Assembly: GCA_965219575.1 (NCBI GenBank)
Contig: OZ244779.1
Location: 1,836,769-1,900,768 of the forward strand
Source: Candidatus Oxydemutatoraceae bacterium
GTDB lineage: Bacteria > Pseudomonadota > Gammaproteobacteria > Poriferisulfidales > Oxydemutatoraceae
DNA length: 64,000 nt
Reading direction: 5' to 3'
The notes under the pieces: generated by a model
Databases searched by the model: none
What the model was told of the DNA's origin: nothing
Seen by the model: the letters and a program-made list of their open reading frames with translations, nothing else
Made by a program: the position numbers and the translations under genes
In this document: in pieces, positions 29,193 to 30,451 of the stretch
How positions within the stretch are numbered: the stretch's first letter is position 1
Layout: each line of letters opens with the position of its first letter

Positions 29193-30451
29193 GGGAATTA
29201 TACAGATAACTTGACAGACTTGTTAGACCGCCTTGCTACCCTATCTTTTTGACGCTTCATAGACCAACCGATGTTGCAATCTCCACGCCCAGTTGCGGTA
29301 TTCCCAGCCGCCATGATGTTTAATGCAGCATTGATGTCCGCATTGTCCTCGTGTCCGCAATGCCGACACTTAAATATCGCTTGTGTTTTGCGGTTAGCTC
29401 TGTCTATCGCTCCGCATTTATTACAGGTTTGACTTGTGTATTGTGCCGGCACTTTCTCTACCTGTGTTTTGTAGCTTAAGCATTGCTCCAGTTTATACCA
29501 GCCACTCTTTAGTATCTCTCTGTTCAAACCTGACTTTGCCTTCACATGCTTACCCGGGCTGTCTATCGTCCCCTTCGCCGACTTCGTCATGCCTGCTGTA
29601 TTCAGCCCTTCCACATAGACGATGTCGTACTTGTCCGCTATTAGCTTGCCGGTTTTATGACACCAATTCGTCCGTGCAAATCGCTCCGCTTGATACGCTC
29701 TCTGTAATTTATACTTCGCTAGCTTGCGCCTATTACTACCCCTGACCCGTCTAGCAACCATTCGCTGATAACGCCTGCGTCTTGCTTCTTTACGCTTTAG
29801 GTTCGGCAGATGATACATTGTCCCGTCCGACAATGCTATCTGCCCCACATTCCTATCCAAACCTACCGCAGTGAGCAACTGAGACTTCTCCGCTAGTTCT
29901 ACTTCATAAGTAATATACGCATACCAATTACCCCGCTCATACTTCACTTGACCCGATACAAACTTCTCACCTTTATACCTATCCCCACCGACAAACTTTA
30001 TCCAACCAACCTTCTGTATGTAAATATGTTCGCCTGCTATTCGTGCTTTGATATAGTTAATCGGAAATGACGGGGCATGTGTGTTTCTGCCGTGAAACTT
30101 GGGTAATCCGCCATTACCCTTAAAGAAGTTCTTATAACTTGTCTCTATTGGTTTTAACGACATCTTCACTATGTTCGCAGAATAATTCTGCAACCACTTG
30201 TCGCAATACTTTCGCAAGGTCGTAAATTGCTTGCCTAGGGTGAAAAAGCTAAACCGGCTCTCGCCGTAATACTCGTATTCGTCCTTCAACTTTGCTACAA
30301 AGTGATTCCAAACATGACGACACGCTCCGGCAGTTCCATGTAATTGCTGATGCTTTTCATAGGTCGCCGGGTACAAGCGGTATCTAATTGTTCTATGAGT
30401 TTTCATTGATGTAATTTAACATTTACTTGTTAAGTTATCTGTATAATTCCC
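29193..30451 (-). mobile_element. Non-autonomous TIR-bounded element carrying only tnpB
   Basis: 24-bp TIRs GGGAATTATACAGATAACTT(G/A)ACA at 29193-29216 and 30428-30451 (23/24); no transposase; no obvious target duplication. Confidence 0.85.
29198..30406 (-). CDS. tnpB: RNA-guided endonuclease TnpB
   Basis: N-terminal YRLYP/HTH, GLDRN (RuvC-I), VEGL (RuvC-II), YTSQTCNKC...CRHC zinc finger, NADINAA (RuvC-III); the stop lies inside the TIR. Confidence 0.95.

Follow-up and report, generated by a model that had tools for sequence, protein, structure and literature searches.

A tnpB-only cassette with IS1595-type inverted ends and a predicted omegaRNA built into the transposon end

What moves a gene for a TnpB nuclease that lies between terminal inverted repeats (TIRs) with no transposase gene beside it, and where would its guide RNA come from? 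Elements of the IS605 type have no TIRs and leave no target duplications; they depend on a Y1 transposase and on a fixed target that doubles as target-adjacent motif (TAM). The locus considered here lies in a Candidatus Oxydemutatoraceae bacterium (GCA_965219575.1; G000 below), a one-contig genome of 2.37 Mb that is 98.9% complete. The window, that is, the whole stretch of 64,000 nucleotides analysed (contig OZ244779.1, positions 1,836,769 to 1,900,768), contains a 1,259-bp segment bounded by TIRs and filled by tnpB. This segment is probably a non-autonomous cassette, resembling a miniature inverted-repeat transposable element (MITE), of an IS1595-family (ISNwi1-like) DDE transposon, with tnpB and its omegaRNA as the only cargo.

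The cassette family and its partner transposases

The window contains exactly two occurrences of the 20-nt TIR core, at 29193-29212 on the plus strand and at 30432-30451 on the minus strand, where chance predicts none. The full arms agree at 23 of 24 positions, as GGGAATTATACAGATAACTT(G/A)ACA, the difference being G or A at position 21. Between them lies a single long open reading frame (ORF), 29198..30406 on the minus strand, and no other gene. Its stop codon (29198-29200) falls within the right TIR, and its ATG is 45 nt away from the outer left end. This agrees in every detail with the original prediction, made from the letters of the window, of 24-bp TIRs with one mismatch around a 402-aa TnpB as sole cargo, without tnpA and with the stop codon in the downstream TIR.

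The same prediction credited the protein with three RuvC acidic residues and a zinc finger, and alignment to solved TnpB-like structures agrees: the RuvC D, E and D are in place (in motifs including GLDRN and YVEGLN), as are both CxxC pairs of the zinc finger, with CRHCG aligned to the zinc motif. Residues 6-376 align with the solved ISDra2 TnpB (E 2.5e-25). Matches above cut-off were obtained to the Pfam domains HTH_OrfB_IS605 (PF12323), OrfB_IS605 (PF01385) and Cas12f1-like_TNB (PF07282), and to the NCBIfam model guided_TnpB (202 bits, cut-off 100; E 1.5e-59). Judged by its domains, its catalytic residues and its predicted omegaRNA, the gene product is a TnpB.

The segment belongs to a family of cassettes, here called family A. 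BLAST finds five full-length copies in G000, at 100, 86, 86, 81 and 80% identity, plus one disrupted copy and short derivatives. Each of the five has an intact frame of 405-408 codons, and direct repeats of 8 bp (AATGAGTG, ATTTTTCT, AAATCATA and A(C/A)CGGCAT) flank four of them. The TIR core has 23 matches in the genome at three or fewer mismatches, deletion derivatives and solo ends included, against none for a reversed control; the ends are thus not confined to the window site, which would have spoken against the original prediction. The 1,839-bp family A cassette at G000:C1:663666-665504 has a tnpB in pieces, with stop codons and an inserted stretch.

TnpB relatives at 49-85% amino acid identity were fetched from other genomes and, after removal of duplicates, 42 full elements were delimited, drawn from G000, G001, G004, G013, G014, G016, G017, G018 and other metagenome-assembled genomes (eight or more genomes); the records of genomes with such relatives are named Candidatus Porisulfidus, Thiotrichales, Oxydemutatoraceae or unclassified Gammaproteobacteria. 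All 42 elements have inverted ends of the GGGAATTAT type, measure 1,243-1,377 bp and lack a second gene, a transposase gene included. The 8-bp target duplication is perfect in 23 and matches at 7/8 in five more (28 of 42 at 7/8 or better). The rule of the end-finding script excluded L050, L055, L056, L058 and L093; inspected by eye, L050 and L056 have TIRs, the right end of L055 is degenerate, and the ORF is broken in L058 and L093. L075, a truncated element, was also left out.

Transposase-bearing IS1595 elements are separate units of 1,276-1,410 bp. Eighteen transposase loci were examined, five of them without a clear TIR pair; among the 13 with TIRs, ten have an 8/8 duplication. In sister genomes their ends match those of the cassettes. 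The right-end 24 nt of L127 (G017), which carries an intact 313-aa IS1595 transposase, are identical (24/24) to those of the family A copy A_229k. Within G016, the terminal 24 nt are identical in the transposase element L120, which has two in-frame TGA codons, and the TnpB cassette L068, and 22 of 24 terminal nt are common to the transposase element L102 and cassettes L044-L046. The inner TIR varies between TnpB clades in step with the local IS1595 elements. G000 itself holds an IS1595 element, family B, in three 1,348-bp copies, each with an 8/8 duplication; its 319-aa transposase matches Pfam DDE_Tnp_IS1595 (6e-45) together with Zn_ribbon_IS1595, and NCBIfam transpos_IS1595 (2.3e-57), and its outer 12 bp, GGGAATTATATA, are common with the cassette.

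The cassette is not an autonomous IS1595 element, since it encodes only tnpB; it agrees with a non-autonomous derivative in its matching TIRs and 8-bp duplications, the window copy itself scoring 2/8. Mobilisation of the cassettes in trans by IS1595-family transposases, as judged from these likenesses, is well supported by comparison, and architecture and trans-mobilisation can be held together with good confidence. The proposal that an IS1595-type transposon adopted this TnpB and mobilises it in trans thus gains from matching ends, over 24/24 nt in sister genomes and over the outer 12 bp in G000. The expected transposase bearing the cassette's own ends exists along the whole 24 bp in sister genomes; that part of the expectation which concerned G000 did not stand, as no intact one with the full family A TIRs is present there. 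Of 19 genomes of the taxonomic family, 16 contain IS1595 transposase homologues, among them all nine TnpB-positive ones. As evidence, co-occurrence over these 19 genomes was rejected as uninformative (9/9 against 7/10, in genomes that are kin).

Other IS1595-related sequences were seen along the way. A family B MITE of 250 bp lies in the window at 23073-23322, with the TIR GGGAATTATATACTTAAATACATAA and the 8-bp duplication TTTATTTA, and has a sister at G000:520823-521072. A 98-aa fragment, 54% identical to the IS1595 transposase, lies at G000:C1:227679-227957, about 2 kb from A_229k, and at the same relative place in G018 (C1:1282058-1282336); it may be the remnant of a transposase element with family A TIRs. 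Nine frames of about 226 aa in G000 (226833-227306, 257630-258103, 361296-361769 and six more), 30-32% identical to the IS1595 transposase core, probably represent further insertion sequences (IS) of the IS1595 family or ISXO2-like ones. In G006, at least eight identical copies of a 1,382-bp IS1595 element (L105, L117, L126 and five more places) all have perfect duplications; their TIR, GGGAATTATGTATTTAACTTGACAGA, resembles that of family A, and G006 has no TnpB match, which indicates that this transposase lineage thrives without a cassette.

An ordinary IS200/IS605 (IS1341-type) or IS607 element, served by a Y1 or serine transposase, could carry such TIRs incidentally or through chance nesting in a MITE. 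In keeping with this, NCBIfam places the window TnpB nearest to IS200/IS605 TnpB models, though below their cut-offs, and outside the clade the closest TnpB lineages have canonical ends and are linked to Y1. Such an origin is nevertheless extremely improbable. TIRs bound all 42 elements, including the close homologues that might have been expected in canonical IS605 or IS607 ends, and variable 8-bp duplications flank 28 of them. With 45 nt before the ATG and a stop codon inside the TIR, no room is left for separate ends, and the TIR is itself part of the omegaRNA fold described below. The Y1 transposase domain (PF01797) gave no match in G000, and Y1_Tnp was not found in seven of the nine TnpB-positive genomes of the family, with positive controls that worked; serine recombinases were not part of this search, and for IS607 it is the TIRs and duplications of the cassette that contradict the ends of such elements.

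Beyond the family, a class-wide pattern search matched three of 401 gammaproteobacterial genomes: G000, G004 of the same family, and G369. The G369 match (L260, G369:C42:11593-11641; GAAGCGTCAA followed at a distance by ATAATTCCC) stands alone in a gammaproteobacterium of another family and is either a cassette or a chance match. A metagenome scan with the pattern CGTGGAGN{18,48}GAARCGTCAAA returned at least 80 loci, mostly chance matches, from which no frequencies can be derived. Among the matches listed were about ten canonical IS605-type relatives and three loci of a second TIR lineage (L142, L151, L159), with ends of the GGTGATTATATAC, GGTGATTAT type and, in L142, an 8/8 duplication. Named plasmid relatives of this lineage (Methanohalobium, Alistipes, Bacteroides fragilis; 46-50% amino acid identity) have canonical ends and no IS1595-type TIR.

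The relationship of the two lineages was followed in a quick maximum-likelihood tree of 51 TnpBs, with a midpoint root only and canonical lineages thinly sampled (L095, L059, L047 and L075 left out). The 39 gammaproteobacterial TIR-type TnpBs form one clade, with a value of 99 in the SH-like approximate likelihood-ratio test (SH-aLRT), and the sister of this clade among the sampled rows is a Y1-linked group with canonical ends (SH-aLRT 100). The three second-lineage TnpBs group with canonical TnpBs (100), relatives that have ordinary IS605 ends. Placed amid these, the second lineage requires two changes to the TIR state, which suggests two captures of tnpB by TIR elements.

The predicted omegaRNA and its flank

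The last ~120 nt of the aligned elements hold a conserved core that consists of a stem with a GGGAAT loop, CTGGACGTGGAG, a second stem and GTGAAGCGTCAAA (Table 1). Alignment A1, from which the positions were converted, leaves out the insertion-bearing L079, L082, L083, L084 and L086 as well as L047, and includes L088. Over 39 sequences, the 18 proposed pairs are paired in 96.0% of cells, against 82.0% in shuffles (0 of 500 reaching the observed value) and 29-57% when the partners are slid, and both sides have changed at eight pairs. Between CGTCAA and the last 12 nt a hairpin is found in 39 of the 42 elements. The inner half of the right TIR, 13-28 nt from the element end, supplies the 3' arm of this hairpin; the 5' arm lies in the C-terminal coding tail and varies with the inner TIR between clades, a covariation that arises because this part of the TIR differs between clades. 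Rfam gave no match in window positions 28900-30700 at E <= 1.

The last six bases of the element, ATTCCC, are pairable with the GGGAAT loop in 98.3% of cells, as a pseudoknot. In the second lineage the loop reads UGGUGAA and the end AUCACC, so that the pairing GGUGA/UCACC is kept through two double changes. L084 has the loop GGGAAC and the right end GTTCCC, its left end still being GGGAATT, and Y1-linked IS605 relatives with the same RNA core show loop and end as GGAAC/GTTCAC or GGATC/GATCAC at the same place. Retained across lineages and in Y1-linked relatives, this pairing indicates that a pseudoknot strand at the extreme right end is ancestral. In silico, alignments and pair counts show a predicted omegaRNA that shares sequence with the 3' end of tnpB and extends as far as the final base of the element. 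Its passage through the TIR had been foreseen, and the terminal hairpin and pseudoknot prove to be built from that repeat. A normal IS605 element nested by chance in an unrelated MITE, the outcome that would have undone the original prediction, is not what is seen: the last hairpin and the pseudoknot of the predicted omegaRNA are made of TIR sequence. Beside this, the G014 cassettes L079, L082-L084, L086 and L088 (1,327-1,377 bp) carry an extra 50-60 nt in the region of the second omegaRNA stem and a longer TnpB C-terminus of 422-434 aa, an RNA and protein insertion specific to their lineage.

Because the pseudoknot strand consists of the last bases, the scaffold would reach the final base of the element and the guide should begin in the flank. 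Both a flank and an internal segment had been considered as guide source, and the flank is now favoured: it is reasonably likely that the guide is transcribed from there, beginning with the 8-bp duplication in a normal insertion and continuing into what follows. The guide might instead be the outer ~20 nt of the TIR, in which case TnpB would cut its own or related ends, aiding excision or competing. The 12-20 nt left after the terminal hairpin are indeed about guide length, and the same stretch stands at both ends with different inner flanks (GACAAA and GACAGA). This possibility is very unlikely, as the GGGAAU loop has its partner in the last six bases, a pairing kept by compensatory changes in the second lineage and in L084, and a homologous pairing occupies the scaffold end in Y1-linked relatives. 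Moreover, the family A hairpin reaches position 13 from the end and leaves 12 nt, and a guide within the TIR would not account for the asymmetry of the flanks.

This asymmetry was counted at 27 independent cassettes with a duplication of 7/8 or better, L047 being dropped as orthologous to A_229k. A purine (A 11, G 16) stands just 5' of the left-side (tnpB-upstream) duplication in all 27, 22 have A or G at position -3, and no duplication begins with G; the mirror-image position beyond the right-side duplication follows no rule (A 12, T 6, C 4, G 5). The purine rule is broken by ten IS1595 transposase elements with perfect duplications, with 6/10 in one orientation and 2/10 in the other. In G000, 'TA' stands before the duplication at 11 of 12 left-type family A ends, MITEs and solo ends included, versus 1 of 10 right-type ends. 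Being tied to the orientation of tnpB and absent from the transposase's own elements, the asymmetry is as expected of a TAM located 5' of a guide that starts with the duplication. That the purine and 'TA' preferences are the trace of a TAM is fairly probable; RNA-guided, TAM-dependent cleavage would have left the purine seen at -1 in 27/27 sites as an indirect trace.

A mechanism can be assembled from these elements. An IS1595-family transposase would recognise the 24-26-bp TIRs, move the cassette in trans and generate the 8-bp duplications. The inner half of the right TIR would double as the 3' arm of the last omegaRNA hairpin, and the final AUUCCC would pair with the conserved GGGAAU loop as a pseudoknot, at the place used in Y1-linked IS605 relatives. 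The guide would be transcribed from the duplication plus the following sequence, and the TAM would lie just 5' of the duplication on the left-end side, as a purine in retained insertions and as 'TA' in the window subfamily. TnpB could then cut unoccupied copies of the site, after which recombination would restore the element. Restoration through nuclease cutting of empty sites has been shown for IS605 elements.

Taken as one reading, homing would have been refitted to a DDE transposon with variable 8-bp duplications: the TIR became the last hairpin and the pseudoknot strand, the duplication serves as the TAM-proximal guide seed, TnpB filters for insertions with a 5' TAM, and at least two independent captures by ISNwi1-like elements took place, each through the likeness of an IS end to the pseudoknot strand. 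In this full form the proposal is possible but less likely than not. The filter, if real, would account for the 27/27 purine and 11/12 'TA' rules, which the transposase elements do not obey.

Table 1. Features of the window cassette and of its right flank, in window coordinates
Feature	Position	Strand	Basis or remark
Whole non-autonomous element, family A cassette, 1,259 bp	29193..30451	-	TIR, tnpB with omegaRNA, TIR; five full genome copies; precise empty site in two sister genomes
Left-end TIR, upstream of tnpB, GGGAATTATACAGATAACTTAACA	30428..30451	-	Repeat comparison
Right-end TIR, GGGAATTATACAGATAACTTGACA reading inward on + strand	29193..29216	+	tnpB stop codon inside
tnpB, 402 aa and a stop codon; intact RuvC D-E-D and zinc finger	29198..30406	-	ORF, domain and structure alignments, dN/dS
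Predicted omegaRNA scaffold, minimum extent	29193..29311	-	Alignments, pair counts, hairpin folds; 5' end probably further upstream
Predicted omegaRNA, P1 stem	29311-29308 with 29298-29295	-	Alignment A1 positions converted
Predicted omegaRNA, loop GGGAAT	29305-29300	-	Alignment A1 positions converted
Predicted omegaRNA, P2	29282-29261	-	Alignment A1 positions converted
Predicted omegaRNA, conserved GAAGCGTCAAA	29258-29248	-	Alignment A1 positions converted
Predicted omegaRNA, terminal hairpin	about 29242-29205	-	Alignment A1 positions converted
Predicted omegaRNA, pseudoknot 3' strand ATTCCC	29198-29193	-	Alignment A1 positions converted
Predicted guide-encoding flank ATGTTAGACCCTAAATTATT, first 20 nt of serS	29173..29192	-	Follows from a scaffold ending at the last base of the element
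serS, ATG abutting the right end of the element	27915..29192	-	Same direction as tnpB; empty sites in G017, G018
Promoter-like site CTAACA-18 nt-TATAAT in right end, facing outward to serS ATG	29197..29226	-	10/12 consensus matches; consensus match only

Age, insertion site and present activity

The age of the family was estimated from synonymous (dS) and nonsynonymous (dN) divergence. Among the five G000 copies, dS ranges from 0.27 to 1.12 and dN/dS from 0.12 to 0.17 in 10 of 10 pairs (codons 1-330), and in the codons that overlap the RNA dS is lower, at 0.17-0.62. These values point to copies that are old and have been kept functional. A_229k occupies the same site in G018, with the same duplication AATGAGTG.

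The site of the window copy can be read from two relatives in which it is empty. In G017, AACAT is followed by CTTTATTC and then ATAGTAGC, and in G018 by ATTTTTTT and then ATAGTAGC; in the window, the element stands between AACAT and TTTTTTTC, which again leads into ATAGTAGC. Both genes, tnpB and serS, run in the same direction, with 5 nt between the tnpB stop codon and the serS ATG. Expression of serS may now depend on the element. DNA contigs from four runs in three studies bridge both window junctions, and none skips the element. Either the insertion was irregular or one duplicate was lost later. A recombination of two copies was discarded as the source of the missing duplication, both flanks being contiguous in the G017 and G018 empty sites.

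Two further observations concern this site. In the empty-site relatives, the 8 nt before the serS ATG are also A/T-rich and contain no obvious Shine-Dalgarno sequence. In G016, a cassette of a different TnpB subfamily (L044 / L249, G016:C1:431157-433222) has inserted independently upstream of serS. It has the same orientation, sits about 40 bp farther from the ATG and is flanked by the perfect duplication CTATAATT; the region upstream of serS may be an insertion hotspot.

It could be argued that the G000 cassettes are domesticated relics, which no longer transpose and whose tnpB or ends are kept for a host role, such as a promoter or translational coupling for serS or an RNA-guided host function of TnpB. 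G000 lacks an intact transposase with family A TIRs, its five copies are intact under the age and constraint just described, A_229k has its counterpart at the same site in G018, the window insertion is present in the contigs of 4/4 runs, and an outward promoter-like site in the right end faces a serS ATG 5 nt past the tnpB stop. Exapted TnpBs with a dead nuclease are known, and the window TnpB, with its intact RuvC triad and zinc finger, is unlike them. The whole omegaRNA is conserved, including the flank-adjacent pseudoknot, the purine and 'TA' rule fits nuclease-based homing, and in sister genomes numerous copies occupy different sites, have perfect duplications and are accompanied by matching transposases. 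Domestication is therefore unlikely, and it would bear on present activity in G000 and leave the identity of the element undisputed.

The reading of the segment as an IS1595-type cassette mobilised in trans, with a guide taken from its flank, has to be set against several findings that weigh on the other side. The window copy lacks a target duplication, its flanks agreeing at 2/8; it has simply been inserted where the serS start codon meets an 8-mer that is present once, and it is the one left-type end without 'TA'. Among the 42 cassettes, 14 have a duplication of 6/8 or worse. With dS of 0.27-1.1 between them, none of the G000 copies is a recent transposition. Within G000, the only trace of a transposase that might have had full family A TIRs is the 98-aa fragment, and the genome's own IS1595 has only the outer 12-13 bp in common with family A ends. 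IS1595 transposases also occur in seven of ten TnpB-negative genomes, and co-occurrence alone has no weight. The covariation of the pseudoknot comes down to few independent events, namely a switch in one lineage, a change in a single element, and wobbles. TnpB clades whose TAMs may differ are pooled in the purine rule, and its transposase control comprises 10 sites only. In G000, the proposed mechanism would thus be represented by five old copies, intact under selection, with no transposase bearing full family A TIRs left and with an atypical copy in the window.

Comparison with known systems

With the ISNwi1-like group of IS1595 the cassettes share an 8-bp duplication, a length of ~1.25-1.4 kb and probably ends of the form GGnnATTAT, and the matching autonomous elements encode DDE_Tnp_IS1595 with a zinc ribbon; unlike an autonomous IS, the cassette encodes no transposase. 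The ends ggnnatTAT, which we take to be the ISNwi1-group consensus of ISfinder and which were reportedly described by Siguier et al. in 2009, are fitted by the cassette ends GGGAATTAT and by GGTGATTAT of the second lineage. Mobile insertion cassettes (MICs) and MITEs have TIRs and a target duplication, lack a transposase, may carry a passenger gene and depend on a related autonomous IS. Here the passenger is the nuclease of a mobile element, and its predicted RNA is fused to the transposase-binding end.

The tnpB-only (IS1341) elements of IS200/IS605 resemble the cassettes in TnpB domain order, catalytic residues, an omegaRNA core of CGTGGAG and, further on, GAAGCGTCAAA, and a pseudoknot 3' strand at the extreme right end; the nearest sampled sister is Y1-linked. 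The cassettes differ by their TIRs, by variable 8-bp duplications and by the failure to find a Y1 transposase in G000.

These features make the family a compact natural system for testing what a homing nuclease adds to a DDE transposon: it offers many intact copies, matching transposases, a predicted omegaRNA that ends at the transposase site and a TAM-like flank. It also illustrates that a guide RNA and a transposase-binding site can use the same bases. The small nucleases (~400 aa), with a predicted short TAM ending in a purine, are added candidates for genome editing.

The association of TnpB with DDE transposons and inverted ends is already known. Altae-Tran et al. (2023, PNAS, PMC10691335) describe six DDE-associated prokaryotic TnpB branches (DDE-1 to DDE-6), all with inverted terminal repeats, and propose trans mobilisation for solo TnpBs whose ends are like those of transposase-bearing elements. 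IS630 (DDE-6) is the only DDE family named in the main text of that article, where 'IS1595' occurs 0 times; its supplements, which may name DDE families, lie outside that count. A 2026 review (PMC13565253) lists ISL2, IS630 and IS1031 as TnpB-associated DDE families and counts as unsolved why TnpB is so rare in DDE transposons of prokaryotes. Since excision by cut-and-paste leaves a break anyway, the added value of a homing nuclease is puzzling. As presented in the main text of PMC10691335, the known branches are like the cassettes in their inverted ends, in a TnpB 3' end near the transposon end and in solo TnpBs thought to move in trans; here, tnpB is never in cis with a transposase in 42 elements and the TIR is built into the predicted omegaRNA. 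A literature search, with supplements outside it, found no text that links TnpB with IS1595 or ISNwi1, and the fusion of TIR and omegaRNA was not found in print. What appears to be new is the partnership with IS1595, an arrangement strictly in trans, a TIR merged with the omegaRNA hairpin and pseudoknot, and the flank signature.

The locus had been proposed as a bacterial analogue of Fanzor capture by DDE transposons. A TIR element with TnpB is indeed present; it is not the first of its kind, given the DDE-associated TnpBs described in PMC10691335. In the Fanzor elements of eukaryotes and viruses, as reported by Yoon et al. (2023, PMC10711439) in the part of that work concerned with their RNA, the TIR and the target duplication lie in the RNA scaffold. 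The likeness extends to a TnpB-family nuclease as sole gene, a TIR within the guide-RNA scaffold and target duplications. The difference is that the Fanzor duplication belongs to the scaffold, whereas the variable 8-bp duplication of the cassette would have to be guide, in a bacterial element with an IS1595 partner. If the two lineages are truly independent captures, the fusion of obligate mobile element-guided activity (OMEGA) systems with DDE transposons would be recurrent in bacteria, in parallel to the Fanzors of eukaryotes.

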